Positions 1 to 52,181 of a stretch of 53,311 nt of DNA are shown piece by piece; the stretch's first letter is position 1, and each line of letters starts with the position of its first letter. Position numbers and translations under genes: made by a program. The stretch lies in IMG/VR virus record IMGVR_UViG_3300045988_149090. One strand, given 5' to 3'. A model generated the notes under the pieces. That model saw only the letters and a list, made by a program, of their open reading frames with translations. It ran no database searches and was not told the origin of the DNA. The DNA comes from a virus.

Positions 1-82
1 CCCCCTTTAGGGGACAATAATAAAGAGAAATTTGGGGTACATTATTGTCCAGAACAATTATCCGACATGACTTTTCTTCCGG
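1..82. repeat. Left arm of terminal inverted repeat (pairs with 53230-53311)
   Basis: The reverse complement of 53230-53311 matches 1-82 at 81/82 positions. The single mismatch at nt 56 is a synonymous ATT/ATA Ile change in the shared reading frame. Similarity stops abruptly at nt 83. The outer limit is unknown because the window ends. Confidence 0.9.
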
Positions 83-390
83 AAATGACATTATATACTT
101 TACATTATGTTTGATATGATATACAGTTTGCTGAATATCAGTAGCCTTTTATGTTTATTTGTTTTTTTTCAAACAATAAAGTATCTTCCTCTTGTTTGCT
201 ATTTAATAGTTAATTGTTACTGGCTTATTATTATATTTGCCCTTTTAGCAGTACTGTATTGTGTGGTGTAAATGTTTAATAATTAATAAATTGAATACAA
301 AAAGTAAGAATGGAAATAATTTTGGGAATTGAGAACTTGTTACCATTTTGTTACTACTAATAATAAACTGTGTGTTTTTATTGAAAGAAT

Positions 391-1431
391 ATGAAAAAGC
401 TATTGAAAATAAAAGAGCCAATAAAGGTGAGAACAAAAAAGTTAGTAAATGGATGTCAATCCATATATCTAGACATATATATGAATGGAAGACGACAATA
501 CGAATTCTTAAAGTTGTATATTATCCCTGAACATAATCAAGCTGACAAAAAACGAAATGTGGAAACGCTAAATTTAGCAAATGCGATTAAGTCTCAGAGG
601 ATTGTGGAAATACAAAATCAAGCTTATGGATTTAATCGTAACAGATTGTCCGATGTGAAGCTGACTGACTATATGAAATTAGTAGCAGAACAAAGTGTAA
701 ACAATAAGGTGCGAAAAAGTACAATACATGCTGTCGTATGTCATTTGAAAAGATATACACCGAATGGAATATTGTTAAGGAAGGTAGACAAAGCCTATTT
801 ATTGGGGTTTATAGATTACTTGAAGAGAGCAAAACAAATACATAGTCAAAAAGAAAAAATGCTACATGTTAACACCCAACTTTATTATTTGAAGATGCTA
901 CGTTATTGTTTGAACTGTGCTGTCTATGAAGATTACATAACTGTTAACCCAATGGATAAAATAAAGAATGAGGATAAGCCAAAACGTTGTAGAACAGAAA
1001 GGGATTATCTCACAATAAAGGAATTAACCAGATTAGTTCATACTCCTTTTTATAATACCTTATTAAAAAAAGCATTTCTATTCAGCTGTTTTTGTGGATT
1101 GAGACATTGTGATATTATTGCATTGAGATGGGAAGATATACGTTATGATGAAAATGGAAATGCACTATTGAATATCATTCAGAAGAAAACGAAAGAAGCC
1201 ATATCGCTTCCACTCAGTTCAGAAGCTATAAAACATTTGCCAAACAGAGGAAATGCCCAAGAGACGGAAAAGGTATTTGCCGGATTGGTCTCATTAGGAC
1301 GGAGTAATGAAATTTTGCATAGATGGGTCGAGCAGGCTGGGATATCGAAACATGTAACCTTTCACGTTGCAAGACATTACCCAAATTCTTTCCCATTGAA
1401 AACAAACGACTTACAAAGAATTGTTTCTTGA
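391..1431 (+). pseudogene. Tyrosine recombinase (phage-integrase family), 5' portion; homology ends after box II (HVARH) at about nt 1377
   Basis: ATG at 391. Box I is present (CGLRHCDIIALRWEDI), followed by ...GISKHVTFHVARH. After that come 19 unrelated codons and a stop. The usual THATxxL...LGH...Y C-terminus is missing here and is found at 52005-52181. Confidence 0.75.
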
Positions 1432-1595
1432 TAGGTAACGATTTGGAAACGAGCGAAGTTCCGTATCTTACCTTGTTTTGCATTAAATCAAAAGAACGCT
1501 GGCTTCAAATGCAAAGGTAGCATTATTTTTTTGAAATACAAACTGTTATAGAGGATGAAATTCCTGTTTACGAAAGGATTCTTTCTTTTATTAGA

Positions 1596-2738
1596 CTAAA
1601 CCGTACAAGGGCACTTATATATGTTTAGCAGTTCATATATTGAAACCGATGGGCACAGAACTTGAATAGCACATTCCTTGCAACAACATCTTTTATTTCT
1701 TGCAAGATACCAAAGACAGCCCTGTGAACCAACCCACTTGTTTATAATGTAAGGTAAATCCATATCTCGCAAAGATTCTATTCTTTCATTTAAGCAACAA
1801 ACTTCACCATTAAAATTGATAGTTAAATGGCCGAAACAAGAGGGATTTATATACTCTTTTACATAACATTCTTTTAGTGTATGGCATGATTGAAGAATTT
1901 CATCTTTAGTCATAATCATTTGTGACTGTAAAGTAATTGTCTTTGTATCCAAAAAGACCGGGCAGAGAATTACATCCTTTCCTATCTTTGATATTTTGTC
2001 CACATCAGAAATCGATGTTATTATATATTTATATAGCAATCTTTCTTCGTTAAAGTTTAGCATATGAAACGGCGTGTGAGAGTCTACCAACAACTCAATT
2101 ACCAGCGAATCAAATTTACGTAGGATTTCTTTAATATAAGAAAAAGGATATGCTAAATAATGAATTCGGTAGATAACCTGTATATTTCGATCTCTTGCAT
2201 ATTCAAGAAACTTCTCTAACTTACCATATGATAATTCTCCTGACAATATGATTTTCTCCAAACAAAAAGAACGAAGTTGCAGGGAAATCTTTTCCATGTC
2301 AATTTCTACACAATTAGTATCTGGGTATTCTAATTGTTGGTATGAGAACGCATTAAGATATGTGAATATTGTATTGTTCAGTAATAATGTAAGGGATGTC
2401 AGCATCATATTTGTGTATGACGTGAGATTATAGCCTAAAGCCTTCTTTTCCTTCTGTAGTGAAGTTGCAATCCTTAATTTTCTTTCTGGGATGTATGGCA
2501 TAAACCCATCATACTGGATGTAATATCCAAAGTGGTTAGTAGCTATCTTTTGCAGCAAGAACTTGGTGTCGCAGTTCTCCTCGATATAGCCAAATCGGTT
2601 TAATCTGTCTATATTATGGTTAGCCAATACAACGTCTTTCAGATATACACCTTTGAACGTTATAGTGTCATATATGAGCAGTTCGGTTGATGTCGCTTTG
2701 ATATAGCAATGTGGGAAAAATATATACAGTCTATTCAT
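1596..2738 (-). CDS. Pseudo-rSAM / SPASM-like partner protein of the RiPP maturase (no CxxxCxxC motif, Cys-rich C-terminus)
   Basis: 380 aa. Its ATG overlaps the upstream stop (ATGA). No N-terminal radical-SAM Cys triad. The C-terminus is Cys-rich (CFGHL...VCCLNE...KRCCCKECAIQVLCP...KCPC). The arrangement resembles the GG-Bacteroidales pseudo-rSAM family as I recall it. Confidence 0.6.
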   Translation of the reverse strand: MNRLYIFFPHCYIKATSTELLIYDTITFKGVYLKDVVLANHNIDRLNRFGYIEENCDTKFLLQKIATNHFGYYIQYDGFMPYIPERKLRIATSLQKEKKALGYNLTSYTNMMLTSLTLLLNNTIFTYLNAFSYQQLEYPDTNCVEIDMEKISLQLRSFCLEKIILSGELSYGKLEKFLEYARDRNIQVIYRIHYLAYPFSYIKEILRKFDSLVIELLVDSHTPFHMLNFNEERLLYKYIITSISDVDKISKIGKDVILCPVFLDTKTITLQSQMIMTKDEILQSCHTLKECYVKEYINPSCFGHLTINFNGEVCCLNERIESLRDMDLPYIINKWVGSQGCLWYLARNKRCCCKECAIQVLCPSVSIYELLNIYKCPCTV

Positions 2739-4180
2739 TTTATAATAATATTATTTTCAAGAATTTCTATTATATTCGGGTGTGACTCTATGTATGATAC
2801 AGCCTCTGACAATAGCTTTGCAAACTTATTCTTAGATGTAAATTCTTCGCACTTACCATTGCTATAACAAAAAGAACATTTTGTACAACAAAACTGCATA
2901 TAGCATTTCTTGCACAAGAATGAAAATTCTGTAATCCTTTTCATGAATCTACTTGCAATATCATTGCAATCAATACGGACACATCCATTGTTGTCTATAA
3001 ATCCTAATGGTGAATCCCTGTTTACTTTCTCACATGGATGTATTTTCCCATCGTAACTTACGAACATTCGTTTTGAGAAAGGAATACAGGTACCTGTTGG
3101 CAGTATCTTGTTGTCTGTATTGTCATCTATGAGTAAGTCTGTCTCTTTATTAAATGAATTATTCAATAGTCTTGTACTAAATAGCAATATTCTATTAAAA
3201 AGAGGATTTTGAGTGATTAAGCCATGCTCCAACGCAATATCTTCAGGAATTTCAAAAGTTTTGAGCATAGACAATATCCTATCTCCATTTTTTGTGTCCT
3301 TTGTAGGAGTATGAACTGGGCTAAAATTTGGTGTCGTATTTAATTGAGATTTAAACCATTCAACTATATTCCTAACGTCACTTATATTGGAAAAAACGGC
3401 ATTATATCGAAATGTTGCAAACCATTTTGGGAACATACTTTCAACATCCATTAAGTTCTTCATTACGATGTCGAACGATGGGGAGCCATTAGGGGTTTTT
3501 CGATAAGAGTCATGTTCTTTGTTTCCGTCAAGGCTAATCAACATTTTGAAATTATGATGTGACAAAAAGTCGGCATGCTTTGATAAAAGCATTGCATTTG
3601 TCGTCATCGTAAAAAATAGTGAACGATTTCGAAATTCAACACATTTGGCATATTCAACAATTTGACGAATGACATCAAAGTTTACCAATGGCTCACCTCC
3701 GTAAAAGCTGATGGCAAAAGGCTCTTTAGGCGCATCCGATTTTGCTTCGCGCTGAAAAAGAACGACCAAATAGTCAATGATGCTTTTTGCTGTTTCAAAT
3801 TTCAGATTCCCCAAAACGCCCCTTCTGCTGTCAAATGTATCATAACCTTCGCTATAACAGCAATACTCGCATCTGAGGTTACAGAGTGTCGTCGTTTCGA
3901 ATATGATTTGGGACAAATTTATCAATGCATTTTGTATTGCATTGCCTGTTATGCATGCATCTAACGATGAGGTAAAATCATCGATGTAACCATATTCCCT
4001 TAATTGTCGAAGGGTCTCGGTCTCTTTATTTTTACCATTTGATATGATATCGTACAGGTCTTTGGGCAAAGGCAATATCGTCTTCGTTGATGGACTATAC
4101 AGATAATAATTGCTATGTTGGGTTTGAAAAGCAATGGACTCCATAAATTTAAAATAAGGAAAGCCAAAGTAATAAAACAA
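2735..4180 (-). CDS. Radical SAM peptide maturase with C-terminal SPASM domain
   Basis: CNLRCEYC (CxxxCxxC) near aa 100. GGEP motif present. The C-terminus is Cys-rich (CIPF...HPCEK...CKKCYMQFCCTKCSFCYSNGKC). The 4180 start is TTG; the first ATG is at 4144. Confidence 0.85.
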   Translation of the reverse strand: MFYYFGFPYFKFMESIAFQTQHSNYYLYSPSTKTILPLPKDLYDIISNGKNKETETLRQLREYGYIDDFTSSLDACITGNAIQNALINLSQIIFETTTLCNLRCEYCCYSEGYDTFDSRRGVLGNLKFETAKSIIDYLVVLFQREAKSDAPKEPFAISFYGGEPLVNFDVIRQIVEYAKCVEFRNRSLFFTMTTNAMLLSKHADFLSHHNFKMLISLDGNKEHDSYRKTPNGSPSFDIVMKNLMDVESMFPKWFATFRYNAVFSNISDVRNIVEWFKSQLNTTPNFSPVHTPTKDTKNGDRILSMLKTFEIPEDIALEHGLITQNPLFNRILLFSTRLLNNSFNKETDLLIDDNTDNKILPTGTCIPFSKRMFVSYDGKIHPCEKVNRDSPLGFIDNNGCVRIDCNDIASRFMKRITEFSFLCKKCYMQFCCTKCSFCYSNGKCEEFTSKNKFAKLLSEAVSYIESHPNIIEILENNIIIK

Positions 4181-4203
4181 TGGCTCTCCTTCAATTAGTG
4201 ATT

Positions 4204-4395
4204 TTAATCAATGTTCCAACTTCCTGCAGAGGCAACGTCATCACACATTGTGATTTCGCCTTCTCTAATGAAGCACTCACAAGGACAATAGCAATTACTA
4301 ATGCGAACAACATTGCCTTTTTGTCCTGCAATTCTCAATTTGTTTTTGAGTTGTTTGTTCTGTTCTTCTATAACAGACAATTTTAATACTCCCAT
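4204..4395 (-). CDS. RiPP-like precursor peptide (63 aa): helical leader plus Cys-rich core NCYCPCECFIREGEITMCDD
   Basis: ATG start, 23 nt upstream of the rSAM gene. The leader LKLSVIEEQNKQLKNKLRIAGQKG resembles GG-Bacteroidales-type leaders but lacks a GG. There are five Cys within 18 residues. Confidence 0.65.
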   Translation of the reverse strand: MGVLKLSVIEEQNKQLKNKLRIAGQKGNVVRISNCYCPCECFIREGEITMCDDVASAGSWNID

Positions 4396-4433
4396 AAGTT
4401 TTTCTTTTTAAACCCCATTTCATTGTTCACAAG

Positions 4434-6200
4434 TCAATCGCAGGGGTATTGCGCTTCGACCTGTTTGTGTATTGTTGTTAGATATTCATCCATAGGAATG
4501 TAAATATTCTTATCGCCATAAAGAGCATCGGTAAAAGTTTTTGGGAAAGCTGCGTATCCGATAAAGGCTCCTCTTAGCATGTACCCGTACTCTTTATTTT
4601 CCACACCTTTATTTTGAACATATCGTTCTATTTGGTCAAAGCCAAAAGGCTTAATAAAGAACGCCATCAAGGACTTCAGTACAACCAGATTATTTGGTAT
4701 GCTGAATGAAGAACATTGATTATGCTTGTATGCCCAAAACTCTCGAAGACTACGAAGTATTAGCTTGCCATTTTCTGTATTCGCATATTCTCGGCACTTG
4801 TATTTATTGGCTGATTCTACTATGAGGTTCAGAACCACATCGTCAGACAACACTCTTTTCTCACTTTTTAGAGCTTCATTAATAATAATGTCAAGAAACG
4901 CTTTCTCTTCAACAGAAGCGTTTACATCAATACTCACAGCAGAGTTTCTTAACGATAGGCATGAATAATTAACTTGACCATTATTTTTGCTTGATGTTTT
5001 TGCTTTACTGATAAGTTCATTCATAATTTCACTGACACGAACAAACAATGCTCCCAAAGTCGTGTCATACACAGAAGCTCCTGTATCAATGTTAGTTATC
5101 TGCTGTTTTATATTACATATGTCTTGTTTAATGGATTTGTACTCGTCATTATCTTCTTCGTATTTTTTGATTTTGTTTTTGAGATATTGTTTGCGTTCAT
5201 ATTCCAAAGTCCCCTTTTTGAAATATTCACGTGTTTTACCCATCTTGATGCCATTGTTGAGTTCTTGATTCTTTATAGAGTTTAATTCTTCAACCAAATC
5301 AGAAATGCCATCACGATATTCTATGTTGTAAAGCTTATTTTCTAATTCTTCTTTTTGAGCCATTAAATTATCTATTCTGTCAGTACCGCTTACTTGCTTG
5401 TTTTCTGAGAGTTCATCCGCACGCGCCTTAGACAATTTTATGATTTCTGAGAACAATTGAATAAGAATGTCGAACAAATTCGTTTTTGTCTTAATGATTC
5501 CGTTATATGCAGCCTTGGCTTTTTTTATAAGTGACATATATTCACCTGCATTCGAAACTGCACTTTCAGAAACCATTACTTGCGTATTTAATCCTGCAAA
5601 TGAATTTTTCAAATCTCGCAATTGGCATGAAAGTCGTTGCTCATGAGGGTCCTCTGCAAATACCATTGCATGGGTGTATGCAACAATCATTCCCTTTAAT
5701 CTATCATAAACATTGTCTTGGACAATGTATTCATGACGCTGAAAAGAAAAGGAATTCGCAATTCTATCAGTAACCAAAGGCTTCTTTGTTTTACCTGTAT
5801 TTATCACGAATTCAGATTTATATTTTTCTATACATTTTACCTCAAACAATATTTGTGATTCTGCAACAAAAGATTCAAGTAAATCATTCGAAGAGAACAG
5901 AAAAGCGACAGCACCCTTTTTGTAATAAATTGTTTTACTATATGTAAATAGGGTTTTACTTTTCTTGACTGGAGTTATATTTGATTTGTCCAAAATTTCC
6001 TCATTGACTTTTAATACGTAATCACCCTCTATTTCCTTTGTTGACAAGATAAGATAGTTAACTCTTTCATTTGTTCCATCTATATAACGGCTCAAATTGT
6101 TGCCATATCCTCTTACTTGATAGAAAGAGAATGGAGATATACTTTCTGAAACAAACGACTCCAGTAAGTTCCATGAATTTATGCCTATATAATAAAACAT
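4434..6200 (-). CDS. 588-aa protein of unknown function (duplicated N-terminal LLESFVxES motif, central K/E/N-rich coiled coil)
   Basis: ATG start, 4 nt after the helicase-like gene stop. I could find no Walker A or nuclease motif by eye. The long open frame in AT-rich DNA supports coding. Confidence 0.7.
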   Translation of the reverse strand: MFYYIGINSWNLLESFVSESISPFSFYQVRGYGNNLSRYIDGTNERVNYLILSTKEIEGDYVLKVNEEILDKSNITPVKKSKTLFTYSKTIYYKKGAVAFLFSSNDLLESFVAESQILFEVKCIEKYKSEFVINTGKTKKPLVTDRIANSFSFQRHEYIVQDNVYDRLKGMIVAYTHAMVFAEDPHEQRLSCQLRDLKNSFAGLNTQVMVSESAVSNAGEYMSLIKKAKAAYNGIIKTKTNLFDILIQLFSEIIKLSKARADELSENKQVSGTDRIDNLMAQKEELENKLYNIEYRDGISDLVEELNSIKNQELNNGIKMGKTREYFKKGTLEYERKQYLKNKIKKYEEDNDEYKSIKQDICNIKQQITNIDTGASVYDTTLGALFVRVSEIMNELISKAKTSSKNNGQVNYSCLSLRNSAVSIDVNASVEEKAFLDIIINEALKSEKRVLSDDVVLNLIVESANKYKCREYANTENGKLILRSLREFWAYKHNQCSSFSIPNNLVVLKSLMAFFIKPFGFDQIERYVQNKGVENKEYGYMLRGAFIGYAAFPKTFTDALYGDKNIYIPMDEYLTTIHKQVEAQYPCD

Positions 6201-6204
6201 ATTT

Positions 6205-7506
6205 CTAATTATTTTCTATTTCAACAACATATTCCTTCGATACATCTTTTAAAAATGATGTTTTCTTGCCCGTGTAGGAAATATAAAGATTACGTGAAGA
6301 ACGAGTACATGCTACATAGAAAGCATTCCTTTTACAGGTATTCGCCTCATTAGCAAATGGAACAAAAACATTGTCGAATTCAGACCCTTTTGCTGCATAG
6401 TATGTAAGAATACATGGTAGGTCGTTATTTGAAAAATCCAAAGTGTTGATTGTCCTAAAAGGAACGACATTTCCAGTTCGATAATGCACCTGAGTATTTA
6501 TCCCTCTTTGTGTTAAAAAATCGTTTACTTCACGCACGTCACTCTCATCAGGAACCAAGATTGCCACATCGTCCAAATCTTCCATTTTTATCCTATTTAA
6601 GATGCCTTCTAACTCTTTCTCTTTGGAAGAGTATTTCGTGATAATGGGTTTTGGATAATTAGGATAGTCGCTATTACCACCATCTTTCATGTTATTTGTC
6701 ATCAAATCCACCTTGACACTTTGAATTTGCTGAGCTACTTTTGCTATGGTCTTTGGCAAACGATAATTGTAATCTAACGAGAAACGTTTATATCCCAAAG
6801 TTTTAGCAATTTCATCAATGGAACTACCATTGAAGTTCATTTGTTGTACAGAATCCCCAAACAAGGAAAGGCTTTTTCCTCTATGGGCTATCATTCTTGA
6901 TTGATAGTCTGATACGTTGAAATCTTGCGCTTCATCGATGATGAGATAATCAATACGGTCTTCAGATTGTTTGTACATGGTTCCACTTGGAATCAGTTCA
7001 AATTTTTCTGTATTTGTCACGCTAAAGCCTGATGTGTATGGAATTTCTCTAAACCAACTAACTCTTCGTCCAAAGGCAGAGTAGAACTTATAATCAACCC
7101 AATCTGCGAAGTCAATTCCATAGGTAGTCTTGTCCTTTTCTGTGCGTTCAAATTTTCTGACGCTTAAATCATTTACCAAATAGAGCGTATTTCTATTTCC
7201 TTTCTCCCAATACACATCTCCAGTCAAATCGAAACCGCGGTGAGTCCAAGCCCATTCATATGCTATACGTTCCTTGTCTAAACCAAGTGCCTGCATACCA
7301 TATGCTATCATTCTCTTCAAGGCCACGGTAAAAATGACAATAGCATAACTTCCTTTATTTTTTGCCTGTAGAGCACGATGGATGGCGAGATTCGTTTTTC
7401 CACTACCAGCCGCTCCTTGTACTATTATATCATCGGTTATACTTTGTATGATGATTTTTCTTTGCGAATCATCCAAGTTTGAAATAAACCACTTTTCTAA
7501 TCTCAT
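6205..7506 (-). CDS. UvrD/Rep-like superfamily-1 helicase-type ATPase (compact, 433 aa)
   Basis: Motifs in SF1 order: GAAGSGKT (Walker A), LIIDEAQD (Walker B), YNYRLP, YYAAKGSEFD, FYVACTRSSRNL. Confidence 0.8.
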   Translation of the reverse strand: MRLEKWFISNLDDSQRKIIIQSITDDIIVQGAAGSGKTNLAIHRALQAKNKGSYAIVIFTVALKRMIAYGMQALGLDKERIAYEWAWTHRGFDLTGDVYWEKGNRNTLYLVNDLSVRKFERTEKDKTTYGIDFADWVDYKFYSAFGRRVSWFREIPYTSGFSVTNTEKFELIPSGTMYKQSEDRIDYLIIDEAQDFNVSDYQSRMIAHRGKSLSLFGDSVQQMNFNGSSIDEIAKTLGYKRFSLDYNYRLPKTIAKVAQQIQSVKVDLMTNNMKDGGNSDYPNYPKPIITKYSSKEKELEGILNRIKMEDLDDVAILVPDESDVREVNDFLTQRGINTQVHYRTGNVVPFRTINTLDFSNNDLPCILTYYAAKGSEFDNVFVPFANEANTCKRNAFYVACTRSSRNLYISYTGKKTSFLKDVSKEYVVEIENN

Positions 7507-7521
7507 AACTTAACCGATTTA

Positions 7522-7665
7522 TTAGAGAAAGGCTATAACGAGAATTGGACGGATCTTACTTTTTTCAGAAGAAGTTCCAATTCTATCATATCCACATCCA
7601 CTCAATGCGCATAACACAATGCTCATAACTATTCCTATGACAATATAAAGACTTTTCTTTTCCAT
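7522..7665 (-). CDS. Small putative lipoprotein (47 aa), first gene of the co-directional operon
   Basis: Not in the ORF track because it is under 60 aa. Translation: MEKKSLYIVIGIVMSIVLCALSGCGYDRIGTSSEKSKIRPILVIAFL, a signal-like hydrophobic stretch plus lipobox LSGC. It ends 15 nt before the helicase ATG. Confidence 0.4.
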   Translation of the reverse strand: MEKKSLYIVIGIVMSIVLCALSGCGYDRIGTSSEKSKIRPILVIAFL

Positions 7666-7695
7666 TTCTTATCTTTTACGTCGAATTTTTCTCCC

Positions 7696-7894
7696 TCTCT
7701 TCGTAAGAGAGGGATTAGGATAGAAACGTACTAAAAATCAACACTTCAAATCATGATAGTTATCTTTTTGCTAAACATTTCTATGTTCTTTCTATGTTTT
7801 TTGATATAAAAAGTTGATTTTCTCCCCGATACATTCTTTGATTTGCGCTATTTTGAGTATTTTTACACCGACAAATCCCTCTCTTACGAAGAGA
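7696..7894. promoter_or_regulatory. Perfect 21-bp inverted repeat pair (7696-7716 / 7874-7894) flanking a 157-bp spacer; candidate invertible or regulatory segment
   Basis: TCTCTTCGTAAGAGAGGGATT at 7696-7716 is the exact reverse complement of 7874-7894. It lies between the integrase stop (7919) and the lipoprotein-helicase operon start (7665). Confidence 0.45.
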
Positions 7895-7918
7895 TAACCT
7901 ATTTTGCTAAACACACTC

Positions 7919-9115
7919 CTACAGATTTTTCAATATCATCTCGTTCGCCTTGTCCACCAAAGAATTGTCCAATGATGCCAGATAGATTTGAGTAGTCGCC
8001 TCGGAATCATGTCCCATTCCCTCGCTGATGACGGAAAGCGGTACATTCTTGTTCTTTGCTATGCTTGCCCAAGAATGGCGGCTGACATACATAGTGAGAT
8101 TCACTTGCAATCCTACGATTATTGCTATTTCTTTTAGCTTGTTATTGACGAGGCGTAGTGCATTACGGTATTGTCGCTGCTCATTACCCACCTTATTGAT
8201 TATAGGCAGCAGGTAATCAGTCCCATTTCTCTGGTATTTGTCGACTATTTCCTGCATACACTTCTCCCACCTGATGAAAAGCTGTTGCCCCGTCTTGCGT
8301 CTGCGGTAAGAAAGGATTCCATTCTGTAAGTCTTTCTTTTTCAAGTAGGCCATGTCAATGAACGACATTCCACGTGTATAGAACGAGAAGAGGAACATAT
8401 CCCTTGCAAACTCCAATGACGGATTCATGGACAAGTCCAATTCCTTAATCTGTTTAATGGCTTTCAGTGGAATGGCACGTTTCACGGTCTTGTCTATGCC
8501 TGTATAGACGTGCCGGAATGGATTGCGCTGTTCCGTCAGTCCTTTCTCCACGGCACGATTATACACCGCACGGAGTATGCGCATATAGAATGAGACTGTG
8601 TTCATGGTTATATCCTGCGCCTTCATGTAAGCCTCATATTCCATCATAAGGTCGGAGCTAAATTCGTCCAACAGGACATCGCTATCTTCCCGGAAGCGCA
8701 TGAAGCTTTTTAGCGTGGCTGCATAATTCTCCGCTGTCCGTTCCTTGTTAAGCAGTTTCAGACGAACAATGACACCCTCCATGAACCGGAAGAAGGATTG
8801 TTCCCTTGTGGCCTCTTGATATTCCTCCACAATACTATCTGCCGTGAAAACATTACCGCTGTTTTCCATTCTTCCAATGATGGCTTTCAGCCTCTTCAAA
8901 TCCCATCCGATACGTTCCTTTATCGAACGTAGAATATCTGTTCTTCCATTGGCAGAAAGAATTACTACACCGCTTTTCTCATTCCATTCCTCCCTGAACA
9001 CCCGGTAATCCGTCTTTATCTGACGGATTACTCGGTTATGGATGACTTGGTAGTATATTGTCCCTTCCTTGTCTACGACAGTCGAAGGGCGGAACTTGAC
9101 CTTTACCGATGCCAT
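7919..9115 (-). CDS. Tyrosine integrase of the mobilizable element (Bacteroides IntDOT/NBU-like type)
   Basis: 398 aa, ATG start. N-terminal arm-binding-like MASVKVKFRPSTVVDKEGTIYYQV. C-terminal SRHSWAS...GMGHDSEATTQIYL supplies R-H...H...Y. It lies next to the Mob genes. Confidence 0.85.
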   Translation of the reverse strand: MASVKVKFRPSTVVDKEGTIYYQVIHNRVIRQIKTDYRVFREEWNEKSGVVILSANGRTDILRSIKERIGWDLKRLKAIIGRMENSGNVFTADSIVEEYQEATREQSFFRFMEGVIVRLKLLNKERTAENYAATLKSFMRFREDSDVLLDEFSSDLMMEYEAYMKAQDITMNTVSFYMRILRAVYNRAVEKGLTEQRNPFRHVYTGIDKTVKRAIPLKAIKQIKELDLSMNPSLEFARDMFLFSFYTRGMSFIDMAYLKKKDLQNGILSYRRRKTGQQLFIRWEKCMQEIVDKYQRNGTDYLLPIINKVGNEQRQYRNALRLVNNKLKEIAIIVGLQVNLTMYVSRHSWASIAKNKNVPLSVISEGMGHDSEATTQIYLASLDNSLVDKANEMILKNL

Positions 9116-9118
9116 ATA

Positions 9119-9787
9119 TCAATCGGATTTAAGGTTATCGGTCGGAGATTTGCCTTTCATGTCTTCCTGCATGATGCTGTCGGAAACGGCTTTCAAAGTC
9201 GTGCCATATCCGTCCGCCTGTTTCCGTACCCACTCGATGGCTTTTTCGTCCCGGCGGATGTCGAACACCTTGTTCAGCCAAAGCACATCATTGGCATTGC
9301 ATCCGCCCCAAGAGCGGATGGCACGGAACTTCAGCGCATCATCGGCATACTGACGTTTGGACTGCCATTGTCCGATGTTGCCCCACAGGGACAAGGCGCA
9401 TATCACACCAATCCCCACAACGAAAGAAAAGACCTTGCTCGATTTGATGTCGAAGCTGTGCCTGTGGATATGATCCTGTCGGGGCAGTTGCTGTTGAACA
9501 TCCGGTACTTTAAACTGTTCTTCAAGGAAACCGATTCGCTTCAAAATCACGGTTGTCACCTGTGCATAAGCCTCCCATTGCCTTGCCAACAAGTCCTTAA
9601 TCTCTTCGGATTGAGCCTTTGTCGTTTCCACAACAGCCTCCTTAATCGGGGATAAATCCGGCTTGTCATTCCCGATTTGAGGCTGTCGGTCTGCCACGTC
9701 GGGCAACTCTTCCAATTTACTTTTGATGCCATTTAAGGTTGTCTTGATTTCCTCAAAGAGGATGAATACATTGTTATTGTCTGCCAT
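9119..9787 (-). CDS. Mobilization accessory protein (MobC-like, one predicted TM helix) downstream of the relaxase
   Basis: ATG at 9787 (the track start at 9796 is TTG). It follows the relaxase stop by 2 nt. Hydrophobic segment VFSFVVGIGVICALSLW. The position is typical of the Bacteroides mobA-B-C order. Confidence 0.5.
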   Translation of the reverse strand: MADNNNVFILFEEIKTTLNGIKSKLEELPDVADRQPQIGNDKPDLSPIKEAVVETTKAQSEEIKDLLARQWEAYAQVTTVILKRIGFLEEQFKVPDVQQQLPRQDHIHRHSFDIKSSKVFSFVVGIGVICALSLWGNIGQWQSKRQYADDALKFRAIRSWGGCNANDVLWLNKVFDIRRDEKAIEWVRKQADGYGTTLKAVSDSIMQEDMKGKSPTDNLKSD

Positions 9788-9789
9788 AG

Positions 9790-10658
9790 TTACCAATTGA
9801 TTTTACGTTGTTTCTTCTTTTTCTTGTTTCTCAAATAAGGATCATAAGGCTGCTGTTCCTCCGGTTGATTGCTTGGAGAAAACAAGCCTAAAGACCCCTC
9901 GATAAGATTGCCGCCACTATCTGAAATTTGGCTTATCTCGTCCCGATTAGATTGCGGATGTGGTTGCGGTCGCATCTGTCGTTCCTCGTAATTGTTACGG
10001 CTCAATGCCGCGTCAATCTTGGAATAGCTGAAAGCGCGGTCTATCTTCGAGCCGTTGAAGCGGTAGCCGTTCATCGTAAAGACTATACCTTGAATTTCGT
10101 TTGTCTGCCCCTTGTACTTGAACTGCACATCGACGCCCTGCCGCTTCAACCGTTCAAGCAAGGTGTTCCAATCCTTGCATCTGCCGACTTCCGCCTTCAA
10201 GATTTGATATAGCCCGTACCTCGTCTTGTCCGGCTCTCGCAAACGCTCTACCTTCACTTGCTCCTTACCATTGGCAAAGTGAAGCCCGTATTTTTTGATA
10301 AGCTCCTTGCAGATGCGCTCGCTGCGAAAGCGGTCGTTCCTGTCGGAAATGGTCTTGCCGTTATTGTCGATACGGTTGAACGCTATATGCACGTGCGGAT
10401 GCTCCTTGTCGAAGTGCCGCCCGATGATGTATTGCGTATCCTTGATGCCCATCCGCTCCATATACTCACGGGCTATCCGAGCCATGACCGCATTGTTCAG
10501 CCGTGGCGCATCCTCCTTTGAGAAGCTCAATGCGATATGCCCGACAGCCTTTGTCACCCTCGGATTCATCCGTGCCTGACCGGTGAATCCCTGCGCTATC
10601 GTGTCGTTATTTTCCAAAAATAAGCCGTCCGCATCTATGATTTGAGTACCTTTTATAA
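9790..10658 (-). pseudogene. MobA/VirD2-type relaxase, N-terminally truncated by the prophage end
   Basis: Relaxase core present: GHIALSFS...HFDKEHPHVHIAFNRIDNNGKTISD. About 20 N-terminal codons and an ATG are missing. The upstream part of the open frame (to the TTG at 10815) runs through the phage end repeats. The boundary is uncertain by roughly 20 nt. Confidence 0.6.
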
Positions 10659-37301: not shown

Positions 37302-38603
37302 ATGCACAGGCAAGGATATATAGTGGAAGAGATTGCCGATTATTCCAATATGGCGGAATCATTCGACCAGGTCCTCCGTGGCTCCAAACGAAAAAAAAGC
37401 CGCCAGGGACGTTACCTGCTTGCGCACAGGGAAGAGGTGCTTCAGGAACTTACCGGAAAAATCAAGACGGGTACATTCACCGTCAAGGATTACCGGGAGA
37501 GGGAAATCGTGGAGGGTGGAAAAATGCGACGTATCCAGATACTCACCATGAAGGACCGCATCGCCGTCCACGCAATCATGGCCGTAGTGGACAGGCACCT
37601 GAAGAAACGGTTCATCCGTACCACCTCAGCCAGCATCAAGAACCGCGGCATGCACGACCTCATGGAGTACATACGCCGCGACATGAAAGAAGACCCGGAA
37701 GGAACACGCTACTGCTACAAATTCGACATCTCCAAGTTCTATGAGAGCGTGGGGCAGGATTTCGTAATGTATTGCGTCCGGAGGGTATTCAAAGACAAGA
37801 AACTCATCGCCATGCTTGACAACTTCGTAAGGCTCATGCCGCAAGGAATCAGCATCGGGCTGAGGTCGTCGCAAGGGTTGGGCAACCTGCTCCTGTCTGT
37901 TTTTTTAGACCATTATTTGAAGGACAAGTACGGCGTCCGCCATTTCTACCGCTATTGCGATGACGGCGTGGTACTCGGTGACGCGAAATCAGAATTGTGG
38001 AAGATTCGTGATGCCGTCCACTTCCAGGTCGCACAAATCGGGCTTACCGTAAAGCCTGATGAACGTGTATTCCCGGTGGACGAGGGCATAGACTTCTTGG
38101 GATATGTCATATACCCCGACCATGTGCGCCTACGCAAGCGCATCAAACAGAAGTTCGCCCGAAAAATGCACGAGGTCAAATCGAGGAAAAGAAGGCGTGA
38201 ACTGGTCGCTTCCTTCTATGGGATGGCCAAGCACGCCGACTGCAATATGTTGTTTAATAAATTAACAGGCAAAAAAATGAGATCATTTAAAGACTTGAAC
38301 GTTTCCTACAAGCCGGAAGACGGCAAGAAACGTTTTCCCGGCTCCGTGGTAAGCATCCGGGAATTAGTGAACTTACCCATCATCGTGAAGGACTTCGAGA
38401 CCGGCATCCGCACCGAACAGGGCGAAGACCGCTGTATCGTAGCCATCGAGATGAATGGCGAGGCCAAGAAGTTCTTCACCAACTCGGAAGAGATGAAGAA
38501 CATCCTCGCGCAAGTGAGTGAAATGCCGGACGGATTTCCGTTTGAGACCATCATCCGGACGGAAACTTTCGGCAAAGGTAGAACCAAGTATGTATTCAGC
38601 TGA
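37302..38603 (+). CDS. DGR reverse transcriptase (433 aa)
   Basis: YCDD catalytic box. DGR-type SQ motif (IGLRSSQGLGNLLLS). The TR lies immediately upstream. About 130 aa follow the RT core. Confidence 0.9.
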   Translation: MHRQGYIVEEIADYSNMAESFDQVLRGSKRKKSRQGRYLLAHREEVLQELTGKIKTGTFTVKDYREREIVEGGKMRRIQILTMKDRIAVHAIMAVVDRHLKKRFIRTTSASIKNRGMHDLMEYIRRDMKEDPEGTRYCYKFDISKFYESVGQDFVMYCVRRVFKDKKLIAMLDNFVRLMPQGISIGLRSSQGLGNLLLSVFLDHYLKDKYGVRHFYRYCDDGVVLGDAKSELWKIRDAVHFQVAQIGLTVKPDERVFPVDEGIDFLGYVIYPDHVRLRKRIKQKFARKMHEVKSRKRRRELVASFYGMAKHADCNMLFNKLTGKKMRSFKDLNVSYKPEDGKKRFPGSVVSIRELVNLPIIVKDFETGIRTEQGEDRCIVAIEMNGEAKKFFTNSEEMKNILAQVSEMPDGFPFETIIRTETFGKGRTKYVFS

Positions 38604-50276: not shown

Positions 50277-50672
50277 ATGGAGGAAAATATCAGATTCATT
50301 CAAATACTTGACGAATTAAAAGCTCAAGGGCAAATAACCGATTATGTACAAGCAGCAAGCATACTTGGCACAAATAAAGCTGGCATAAGCGACATAAAAA
50401 GTGGTCGGAAGAAATTATCAATAGAGCTACTCAGAAGTCTGAAATATTCATACCCTAATATTTCGATTGATTGGATCATCATGGGAACAGGGGATGCTTT
50501 CATAACAATGAAAGAGAAGCAGGAAACCACAGATGCACACTTATTCGTACAAACCATAACCCAACAAGCGGAAGAAATCGGCCGTCTCAAAGAACAAATT
50601 CGCCAAATGAATCTTGAAAAAGGGAAACCTGCATCGGATGCGTACACTTCTGGAGATGCAAATGTAGGGTAG
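50277..50672 (+). CDS. Phage repressor (HTH, cI/Mu c-like position)
   Basis: ATG at 50277. HTH DYVQAASILGTNKAGISDIKSGRKKLS. Transcribed toward the phage end, divergent from the early operon. Confidence 0.65.
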   Translation: MEENIRFIQILDELKAQGQITDYVQAASILGTNKAGISDIKSGRKKLSIELLRSLKYSYPNISIDWIIMGTGDAFITMKEKQETTDAHLFVQTITQQAEEIGRLKEQIRQMNLEKGKPASDAYTSGDANVG

Positions 50673-51138
50673 AGCGCACTTTTACCATCCGGAGAACATG
50701 AAACGTTACCCTGAGGATACCCCCGATTATACCTTCAGACTCCCCTCTCTCGGTATTCCCCCTCCATCCACCCCATATAATCGCCTGAAAAGGACTGATA
50801 ATCCGTTATATAATAATGTATGCTTTTTATAGGTGGTGGTTTTTAGGGTGGGTGTATCAAGGCATATTTTACACCTATCATTCAAAAAACCATATTTTAC
50901 CATACTTCCAACTACCCCCTCTCAAAACCATGTTTACTAACCCCAGTTCTTATAAAAACTAACCCCACTTTCTAACCCCAGTACTATCCCCACCTCCAAA
51001 ATTGCCACTCCAAGTGTCACACCAAATGTAGAAATCGCCATCTGAGAGCACAAAAAAAGGAGACCATAAGTCTCCCCCACAAGAATAACTGCCGAATGGT
51101 GATTTTCTTTCGTTCTAATGCCATTCTAATCTATTCAC

Positions 51139-51369
51139 CTACTCTCCCCTCCTACTCCCTGAAATAAGCGTAGATTGCTTGATTATAGCCCTTTTAGTGC
51201 ATACTGTACCATTACCGGACAGACCGGCATGTAACAAATAATTCTTGGTCGCACCCACCTGTTCCGCCGTCAAAACCGTATAAACAGCCGAAATACTACT
51301 AAAATACCAATCTCTTCGCTTTGTTCCGTCTATTCCGTGCGTCAAATGCACATGTACAACCTTTGCCAT
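51139..51369 (-). CDS. Small hypothetical protein (76 aa) near the phage left end
   Basis: ATG start. MAKVVHVHLTHGIDGTKRRDWYFSSISAVYTVLTAEQVG... I recall similar small proteins from Bacteroides mobile elements; not verified. Confidence 0.4.
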   Translation of the reverse strand: MAKVVHVHLTHGIDGTKRRDWYFSSISAVYTVLTAEQVGATKNYLLHAGLSGNGTVCTKRAIIKQSTLISGSRRGE

Positions 51370-51582
51370 ATCACTATATTTTATAGTACAAATATACTAA
51401 ATAATCATTATATGGAATATTTTAGAAACATATAATCCAAAACAAGGCATAAAAAAAGCGGCCACAACCGCTATCTTCCTCTCCTGCTTACACACCATGT
51501 AAACTTCATGTAAGCCCATTTAAAGCAATCGCCAAACCGATGCAACCAAAACAGCCCTCCACGTAAACAGAAATTAAACCTG

Positions 51583-51604
51583 CGTAAACGTTTCGTTTTG
51601 CGGA
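51583..51604. repeat. Outermost left-end repeat (L1-like), inverted copy of 10659-10680
   Basis: The reverse complement TCCGCAAAACGAAACGTTTACG compares with TCCGCAAAACGAAATGTTTCGA. Confidence 0.7.
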
Positions 51605-52004
51605 AGTTCCTTCTATCCTTCCCCGTAACCTATTGTATTATAAAGCGATGTGTTGTTTTATTCAATATATCGTTTTATACGCTTCGTTCTGTGCCCCGTA
51701 CACCTTGAATTTTTCCACTTTCATACGCTTATATTTTTTGTTGGCAAAATTAGCCTGTCTATAAGCGTTCCTTGATACGCAAAATACTGTGGATGAGCGC
51801 AAACGAAACGGTGAGGACTTCTTTTCATTGCCTACCGTTACCGACATCCGTTTCGGTAACTGCCCGGCTAACGGTTTGGTAACCGAATGACCTCAATATT
51901 CCGTTACCGTTTGCATTTTCCACATTTAGCAAAATACAGAAACATTGCTCATTTCAAACGACTTACGTTTAATCTTCACCTCTACGCTTTTCCTTGCAGT
52001 GCCT

Positions 52005-52181
52005 ATCACTTTCCACACAGCACGCCATACACATGCAACAATGATGCTGACGTTGGGAGTAGATTTATATACAGTCTCCAAGTTATTGGGACATACCAAT
52101 ATACAGACAACACAAATTTACGCAAAGCTTGTGGATGAAAGTAAAAAGAAGGCCGTCGCTTTGATTCCTAATATAACATAA
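52005..52181 (+). pseudogene. 3' fragment of a tyrosine recombinase gene (box II to stop)
   Basis: ITFHTARHTHATMMLTLGVDLYTVSKLLGHTNIQTTQIYAKL... contains HxxRH, the LGH His and the catalytic Tyr. No upstream recombinase sequence is adjacent. Confidence 0.75.

Follow-up and report, generated by a model that had tools for sequence, protein, structure and literature searches.

The 53,311-nucleotide IMG/VR virus record IMGVR_UViG_3300045988_149090 (the whole stretch is referred to here as the window) carries an operon in which a helicase gene and the gene of a 588-amino-acid (aa) protein are followed by a trio comprising a peptide gene and two genes for enzymes of the radical S-adenosylmethionine (rSAM) type. 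The question raised by this locus is whether the helicase pair and the peptide-maturation trio form one composite system or are two cargo modules that are merely adjacent; a preliminary description, made from the sequence of the window, had offered both possibilities. To address this, we compared the window with other loci (labelled L001–L082; P-numbers denote members of the 588-aa protein family). The operon lies behind an invertible DNA switch, a feature missed in the preliminary description and stronger than any other regulatory feature of the locus. We lean, with modest confidence, towards a phase-variable cargo operon that joins two separable modules, co-inherited and co-regulated in one clade, with neither requiring the other.

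An invertible switch upstream of the operon

The operon, the switch and the adjacent recombinase gene comprise the following features:

1596–2738, minus strand: cysteine-rich pseudo-rSAM partner, 380 aa, with an ATGA overlap with the rSAM stop codon; sub-threshold match to TIGR04150
2735–4144, minus strand: rSAM/SPASM maturase, 469 aa, with the cluster motif CNLRCEYC; matches TIGR04148
4156–4191, minus strand: conserved RNA hairpin in the gap between peptide and rSAM genes, predicted by RNAalifold from eight loci
4204–4395, minus strand: precursor peptide, 63 aa, five cysteines, no double-glycine (GG) motif; eight variants aligned
4434–6200, minus strand: 588-aa protein of an uncharacterized family, consisting of a conserved alpha/beta domain at the N terminus, a middle part made of helices and a helical domain at the C terminus
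6205–7506, minus strand: compact superfamily 1 (SF1) UvrD-like helicase, 433 aa, Walker A GAAGSGKT and DEAQD; Pfam and NCBIfam matches
7522–7665, minus strand: 47-aa open reading frame (ORF) with a lipoprotein-type signal (LSGC), present only in the near-identical copies L028 and L029
7696–7894: invertible switch
7919–9115, minus strand: tyrosine recombinase, 398 aa, with Arm-DNA-bind_5, Phage_int_SAM_5 and Phage_integrase domains

Two perfect inverted-repeat arms of 21 nt (7696–7716 and 7874–7894) enclose 157 nt (7717–7873) between the stop codon of the recombinase gene and the first ORF of the operon. A 52.6-kb ENA contig (L028) matches the window from 1355 to 10654 and carries exactly this segment inverted; outside the segment there are three mismatches in the shared 9.3 kb, plus six at the very end of the match. 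Orientations were called by scanning metagenome contigs for the repeat arm and then applying flank-anchored junction tests. Seven sequences have orientation A (the window, L048, L055, L056, L065, L067 and L071, the last on the recombinase side only), and flank-anchored junctions assign L028 (both junctions) and L063 (operon side) to orientation B. The L029 contig ends inside the segment and was read as B because it begins there in the L028 orientation; the L058 contig ends at an arm. The presence of the segment in both orientations in otherwise near-identical assemblies suggests that the operon is phase-variable.

A sister element (L074 and L075) has the same arrangement. Its recombinase, 61% identical to that of the window, lies in the same position, together with its own repeats of 21–23 nt about 160 nt apart, and the middle segment is inverted between L074 and L075, such that both orientations are seen. 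This switch carries an exact Bacteroidetes −7 motif (TAnnTTTG), TAAATTTG, which is directed towards the operon in L075 and away from it in L074. The homologous sequence of the window-type switch, TTTGCGCTATTTTGAG, is near-consensus and points at the operon in orientation B, which suggests that the window, in orientation A, probably represents the OFF state.

The tyrosine recombinase is the candidate invertase and is Tsr-like. It would be the enzyme that catalyses the inversion, as suggested by its position and by the sister element, where recombinase (61% identity) and repeat sequence have changed in concert. The Tsr15 and Tsr16 invertons of Bacteroides fragilis provide a precedent for this architecture (PMC13139388). 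As in Tsr-type invertons of Bacteroides, a tyrosine recombinase gene lies beside perfect inverted repeats of about 21–23 nt, upstream of a co-directional operon, and both orientations occur. Unlike those invertons, the cargo of which consists of surface structures (fimbriae, SusC/D, capsule and lipoproteins), the switch described here precedes a cytoplasmic helicase pair and a peptide-maturation trio on a mobilizable element.

One contig shows a different junction. In the last 330 nt of the reverse strand of L071, a low-coverage contig from the human gut, the second arm is followed by 19 nt and then, in place of the operon, by the middle part of an ORF for an OLD/ABC-type ATPase (containing EEPEAHIH..TTHS). 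Alternative recombination could have produced this fusion, or the contig is an assembly chimera.

Layout of the operon

Six minus-strand ORFs run head to tail within 1596–7665. The preliminary description spoke of a seven-gene operon but listed six ORFs, and six are present; the order, the gaps (15, 4, 38 and 23 nt) and the single ATGA overlap that it gave are all reproduced by the ORF coordinates. Positions 1–7900 form an island of about 33% G+C, adjoined by DNA of about 50–55% G+C. On the minus strand between 3922 and 10614 we found no Bacteroidetes TAnnTTTG motif and no consensus sigma-70 promoter, a scan that is uninformative for Bacteroidetes, and no terminator-like site was found on this strand. 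The layout thus resembles a transcription unit, as had been proposed, with short gaps and no promoter or terminator motif dividing the halves, and the operon genes are probably co-transcribed in one clade.

The first ORF does not appear to belong to the system. The 47-aa lipobox peptide of the preliminary description exists, with its LSGC signal, but outside the near-identical copies it is missing from all other versions of the block. Compared with the sister elements L074 and L075, in which the conserved sequence GGAAAAGAAAAGTC directly joins the helicase start, its body of about 128 nt is an indel. We therefore rejected this lineage-specific ORF as a component.

A conserved pair in defence islands

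The assignment of the 433-aa protein to the SF1 helicase-like ATPases is borne out by Pfam matches to UvrD_C, UvrD-helicase and AAA_19, and this is the sole ORF of more than 150 aa with a Walker A motif in the 53-kb window. The partner had been reported to contain no recognizable motif; correspondingly, the 588-aa protein has no match in Pfam, NCBIfam or PADLOC, a single chance-level match in PHROGs and no match in the PDB by sequence profile. The two small ORFs (47 and 63 aa) matched no family either. A profile search of 1.84 billion representatives places it in a family of 599 clusters at E ≤ 1e-3. Among 88 diverse members, E19, S22, P23, K122 and G548 are invariant. The N-terminal motif MxYYI..SWNLLESFVxESISP is genuine and conserved in the family, as is the second, internal LLESFVAES copy to which the preliminary description had drawn attention.

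An AlphaFold2 model of the 588-aa protein, built from the 88-sequence alignment, reached a mean predicted local distance difference test score (pLDDT) of 94.4 and a predicted template modelling (TM) score of 0.85; 14 sequences had yielded a model of low quality across the N-terminal domain. The model comprises an N-terminal alpha/beta domain of about 135 residues, helices of about 25 residues between positions 155 and 403, and a C-terminal helical domain. No Foldseek match was significant, with best E values of 0.12 in the PDB and 0.011 in BFVD. The weak matches were to SMC/Rad50-type coiled coils (TM < 0.1, E > 0.01); we treat them as noise and reject an SMC/Rad50-like ATPase, as the protein has neither a Walker A motif nor an ABC signature. 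A PD-(D/E)xK reading of E19, D71 and E120-x-K122 was also set aside, as no fold match backs it. One 46%-identical family member (P0092; WP_195253867.1, Prevotellaceae) is named ‘lantibiotic ABC transporter’ at NCBI, a name that looks unfounded for a family without an ABC or transporter domain.

Scanning one genome per species with the family profile yielded 27 loci from Prevotella, Phocaeicola, Bacteroides, Parabacteroides and other Bacteroidales. The helicase gene lies directly upstream, a few bases away or overlapping, in all 26 of the loci with upstream DNA. Even the distant members P0161 and P0265 are preceded by a UvrD-like gene, and in one of them an overlapping DUF1848 gene follows. By this gene order, the helicase and the 588-aa protein constitute a strictly conserved pair.

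We took a census of the neighbours of the pair, covering 143 proteins within 5 kb at 21 genome loci that lack the trio; this census is qualitative and has no formal background statistic. It contains WYL proteins (8–9, mostly directly upstream), small methyltransferases resembling the RT_UG35 N terminus (9), DUF1848 proteins (7), retron-type reverse transcriptases (6), ADP-ribosylglycohydrolases (4), Schlafen AlbA_2 (SLFN) proteins (4) and HisKin-conflict/iREC proteins (3). Other copies of the pair adjoin Abi_2, CHAT/TPR, SIR2 and HipA genes, with TIR genes also nearby. Such neighbours are the signature of a defence-island gene pair and agree with the earlier suggestion of a helicase pair of the kind seen in anti-phage islands.

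Gabija (GajA/GajB), Hachiman and Nhi likewise couple a UvrD-like SF1 helicase tightly to a second protein, in defence islands and on mobile elements. In contrast to Gabija and its kin, the partner here is neither an OLD/TOPRIM nuclease nor a protein with any known domain, and the helicase has only partial matches in PADLOC, to RTasHel and to GajB (the latter at most about 60 bits). Without a GajA-type OLD/TOPRIM partner, and with a 588-aa protein that lacks PADLOC and Pfam matches, the pair falls outside Gabija.

A second comparison concerns a clade without the trio. In seven loci (L015–L017, L021, L023, L026 and L027; the cluster is also present in L032), genes for the methyltransferase, helicase, 588-aa protein and DUF1848 protein follow in that order in one co-directional cluster. 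In L016 the methyltransferase stop overlaps the helicase start and the 588-aa gene stop overlaps the DUF1848 start. UG35 and UG25 reverse transcriptase systems consist of a methyltransferase–reverse transcriptase–alphaRep protein paired with a UvrD helicase or DUF1848 protein (PMC9226505). As in these class 1 UG/Abi systems, the methyltransferase, helicase and DUF1848 protein of this clade match PADLOC RT_UG35, RTasHel and RTasDUF1848; unlike them, the cluster has no reverse transcriptase, and the 588-aa protein occupies the position of the reverse transcriptase–alphaRep protein. The four-gene arrangement is not present in the window.

Retron-type reverse transcriptases with a C-terminal extension of about 180 aa lie downstream of the pair in L009, L014, L019, L020, L022 and L025, with a WYL regulator upstream of the pair. 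In L009 and L025 the distance is about 330 nt, and the gap could hold a retron non-coding RNA.

A peptide-maturation trio without a GG leader

The preliminary description likened the last three genes to the GG-Bacteroidales trio, which encodes a ribosomally synthesized and post-translationally modified peptide (RiPP) and its enzymes. This likeness holds for the enzymes but not for the precursor. The window rSAM protein scores 318.8 bits against TIGR04148 (cutoff of 300), and its relatives in L033 and L041 score 329–344 bits. The pseudo-rSAM protein aligns with TIGR04150 from end to end but with 77 bits (cutoff of 250), and its homologues in L033, L041 and L045 are likewise sub-threshold (65–69 bits). 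The peptide has no match to TIGR04149 even at E = 10, and GG is absent from all eight aligned variants. The trio therefore shares with GG-Bacteroidales the enzyme pair and its order, the overlapping stop and start codons and a cysteine-rich precursor directly upstream, and differs from it in the absence of a GG leader and of a TIGR04149 match, in the low scores of the partner (65–77 bits), in having no C39/ABC exporter nearby and in the conservation of the whole peptide, including both termini. These profile scores place the trio in a sister branch of the GG-Bacteroidales RiPP system.

The invariant positions of the peptide comprise the N-terminal MG.LKL..(I/L).EQNK, C35-x-C37-P-C39, F42-I43, G46-E47 and the C-terminal SWNID, and the peptide is 65% identical where the pseudo-rSAM protein is 25% identical. 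The hairpin that follows its gene has 11 predicted pairs, 5 of them with compensatory changes across the eight loci, which include loci with only the trio. A structure in this position in peptide-maturation operons is commonly taken to set the ratio of precursor to enzyme transcripts. The rSAM gene starts at the ATG at 4144, with the conserved N terminus MESIAFQ or MEAIVFQ, because L001, L002 and L005 carry an in-frame stop codon between the TTG at 4180 and the conserved ATG. The docking motif (MFYYxG-x7-ES) that the rSAM and 588-aa proteins had been suggested to share rests on the TTG start, and we reject it as an artefact.

One explanation is that the trio is an ordinary bacteriocin-type RiPP cluster, with an unlinked exporter, that lies downstream of a defence pair by chance; the shared layout would then reflect the mere descent of one block on a mosaic mobile element. 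According to the literature, pairs of TIGR04148 and TIGR04150 proteins form clusters of bacteriocin-like character, some of which include an ABC exporter and HlyD (PMC4573289), and RiPP clusters generally co-localize with defence and mobility genes (PMC12715929). A precursor that fails TIGR04149 and has no GG does not fit this explanation well, nor does a peptide far more conserved than its enzymes, which is the opposite of diversifying bacteriocins. We consider such hitch-hiking improbable.

The peptide also bears on the alternative of a five-gene defence system, in which a cross-linked 63-aa peptide would stay in the cell and work with the helicase pair as an effector, cofactor or regulator, and in which pairs without the trio would use other accessories (DUF1848 and methyltransferase) in the same role. 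The reported absence of a C39-peptidase ABC exporter and of a GG site is confirmed: the 53-kb window lacks an ABC signature and has no Walker A ORF of more than 150 aa besides the helicase, and no ABC, C39 or HlyD Pfam match occurs in the gene lists of the window-type element or the other trio contexts (about eight contexts). SCIFF (ScfA/ScfB) consists of a short, fully conserved, cysteine-rich peptide with an adjacent rSAM/SPASM maturase of the thioether type and no dedicated exporter. The window trio resembles such intracellular-type rSAM substrates in its short conserved cysteine-rich peptide, with no GG and with both ends invariant, its adjacent rSAM/SPASM gene and the lack of a detected exporter. 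It differs from SCIFF in peptide family and in taxa, and its match to TIGR03974 (91 bits) is far below the cutoff of that NCBIfam model. The docking motif, which would have tied the two halves physically, is lost to this alternative as an artefact.

Two modules or one system

The gene-neighbourhood comparison for which the preliminary description had called gives a divided answer: the halves co-occur elsewhere, yet each is also found alone. The block of helicase, 588-aa, peptide, rSAM and pseudo-rSAM genes recurs (L001–5, L028–31, L041–47, L074–78 and L080–82) in the same order, with a spacing of 12–38 nt between the 588-aa and peptide genes, in at least five genomic contexts:

L028, L029: window-type element
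L074, L075: sister element with the 61%-identical recombinase
L001–5, L030, L076, L077: mobilizable element flanked by Abi_2
L045–47: another mobilizable element, with a 588-aa protein at 56% identity
L041–44: CHAT/SIR2/HipA island, with a 588-aa protein at 47%, an rSAM protein at 44% and a partner at 28% identity

The pair occurs without the trio in 21 out of 27 species-level genome loci (L007–L027), where WYL, methyltransferase plus DUF1848, or retron-type reverse transcriptase genes are next door instead. The trio occurs without the pair in three lineages:

L033–36: followed by TIR/VWA, RyR, TIR and WYL genes
L037–39: among housekeeping genes
L040: behind a NusG-like gene

One candidate for a recent trio-only locus, L079, was rejected because the end of a Mu-like phage is joined near codon 9 of its peptide gene.

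The block thus recurs in five contexts with no motif separating its halves, as a composite would, whereas the 21 pair-only loci and the trio-only loci (L033–40) speak for adjacent modules. The block is conserved more deeply than chance adjacency would suggest, and each half is autonomous elsewhere. Order and tight spacing persist across the five contexts down to identities of 47% (588-aa protein), 43% (rSAM) and 25% (pseudo-rSAM), in keeping with a five-gene system, as are the TIR/VWA/WYL genes that lie beside the trio even without the pair in L033–36, and the overlapping downstream DUF1848 gene in another clade of the pair. The persistence of each half alone in several lineages counts the other way, as do the trio-only loci themselves: these retain the hairpin, and in front of the trio they have a separate non-coding region that must provide its promoter. 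We hold an integrated five-gene system to be possible, although unlikely.

The same comparisons bear on hitch-hiking. Trio-positive loci all fall in the top helicase clade (at least 79% identity pairwise, 82–83% to the window), which fits a single acquisition. The spacing of 12–38 nt and the absence of a promoter motif do not accord with a chance neighbour, and L040 retains a remnant of the 588-aa gene end, which demonstrates fusion of the modules at the level of sequence. At 6290–6355 of that locus (window 4396–4460), the last roughly 30 nt of the 588-aa gene (GTCGAAGCGCAATACCCCTGCG..) are kept as non-coding DNA upstream of the peptide gene, and a short spacer with a CCCC...GGGG element is also conserved there. 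In L006, the 588-aa gene is followed by a leader remnant only, without the trio. By their sequence, both remnants are deletion scars.

For two separable modules behind one switch, the explanation that we prefer, we propose the following sequence of steps. The 157-bp segment between the 21-nt inverted repeats is present in both orientations in natural populations. The adjacent recombinase would flip it, and the L028 orientation would aim a Bacteroidetes-type promoter at the operon, such that helicase, 588-aa, peptide, rSAM and pseudo-rSAM genes could be expressed on one transcript in a subpopulation of cells. The pair is the invariant core of a large defence-island family that takes varied accessory genes; most likely it surveys foreign nucleic acid, a task in which the helicase would serve as motor or sensor and the 588-aa protein, through its conserved N-terminal domain, would be the partner or effector. 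The rSAM/SPASM maturase, a member of its family by profile score, and the pseudo-rSAM protein would cross-link the peptide at its CxCPC core, and the conserved hairpin after the peptide gene may set the ratio of peptide to enzyme transcripts.

Several points weigh against this explanation. The window-type switch has only near-consensus promoter motifs (TTGATTTG and TATTTTGA) and no exact TAnnTTTG in either orientation, and both co-transcription and the ON/OFF assignment are ones that we infer from sequence. The pair has no known defence phenotype and is absent from PADLOC 2.0, and its matches to GajB and RTasHel are partial. Conservation of the entire peptide, at a level well above that of the pseudo-rSAM protein, is unusual for a competitive bacteriocin. 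Finally, a matrix of rSAM identities places the lineages that have only the trio between those that carry the block (identity to the window of 54–57% for trio-only L033 and L037, and of 42–45% for block-carrying L041 and L045). Two histories could explain this placement, namely an ancestral link with several subsequent losses or more than one origin of the link; both hint that linkage has been selected for, an outcome not predicted by simple hitch-hiking.

The mobile element and its prophage

The operon had been described as part of a mobile element. The relaxase gene in the window, and the MobC, DUF3408 and HTH_17 genes that complete the backbone in L028, indicate that it is carried by an integrative mobilizable element of Bacteroidales (Prevotella-type). 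The features outside the operon are:

391–1431, plus strand: truncated tyrosine integrase marking where the conserved block ends; other copies are homologous only as far as about 1355–1409
9119–10654, minus strand: element backbone, a 225-aa ORF and a MobA/VirD2-type relaxase (relaxase domain) without its 5′ end
10655–51606: Mu-like transposable prophage that ends near 51606 and cuts the relaxase gene at 10654

The integrase at 391–1431 breaks off behind ..ARH, and a different integrase in L028 is truncated at this very point. Differing tyrosine integrases are cut directly after their box-II ..ARH codons in the window (1355–1431), L028 (12961–13037) and L079 (10002–11129), and run into the same conserved flank, with the tails YPNSFPLKTNDLQRIVS and FQSSFMFRINNLQRIAT. 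A C-terminal integrase fragment that starts with ITFHTARH lies 50 kb away in the window, at 51945–52181. This ..ARH motif in integrase genes may be an insertion site of the block or element. We looked for a tRNA att site and found none, and a megablast search of 1–9200 against phage records gave no match.

At 10654, inside the 5′ end of the relaxase gene, the window departs from four independent copies (L028, L048, L055 and L058). From here the prophage encodes Portal_Mu, Mu F, a MuB-like AAA_22 protein, a probable transposase of 672 aa and large tail proteins. It is bounded at either end by the inverted motif TCCGCAAAACGAAA(C/T)GTTT. Its right flank is a different locus rather than the remainder of the relaxase gene; this junction therefore stems from a rearrangement or, alternatively, from an assembly that was routed through a multi-copy transposing phage. 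The IMG/VR contig L079 (6525–7236) shows that a phage has also entered the five-gene block: a related Mu-like phage abuts the block with its right end, about 97 nt away from codon 9 of the peptide gene. This is the second independent junction between this type of phage and the element.

The prophage also encodes a reverse transcriptase (RVT_1, 433 aa, 37302–38603, plus strand), possibly that of a diversity-generating retroelement acting on nearby tail genes. At the low-G+C right end of the window (50659–52120, minus strand), five TAnnTTTG motifs are spaced about 356–368 nt apart. This spacing (about 362 nt, 50.6–52.1 kb) had suggested a tandem array, which was rejected as no tandem repeat was detected.

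Implications

In the libraries and literature that we searched, we found no earlier description of the helicase/588-aa family, of the trio branch without GG or of a switch with cytoplasmic cargo. The switch, and the size and context of the helicase/588-aa family, are the most useful new facts. Present in defence islands of Bacteroidales and without a relative in Pfam, PADLOC or structure databases, the family makes a good candidate new defence system of a dominant phylum of the gut and mouth. In the branch of GG-Bacteroidales described here, GG leader and exporter are absent and conservation is higher in the precursor than in the enzymes, a pattern that suggests a RiPP-like peptide with a conserved role inside the cell.

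Known recombinase-driven switches of this kind control surface structures; this one, with both states in public assemblies, would control cytoplasmic cargo, and if the helicase pair is defensive, the mobile element would carry bet-hedged immunity. The furthest-reaching possibility, which we regard as doubtful, is a phase-variable, mobile, five-gene immune system in which a non-exported, cross-linked peptide acts in the cell together with a helicase and a protein of new fold, and which is expressed in a subpopulation through a Tsr-type inverton. If this were true, a RiPP-type peptide would be a working part of nucleic-acid surveillance, as its effector, cofactor or switch, rather than a secreted antibiotic.

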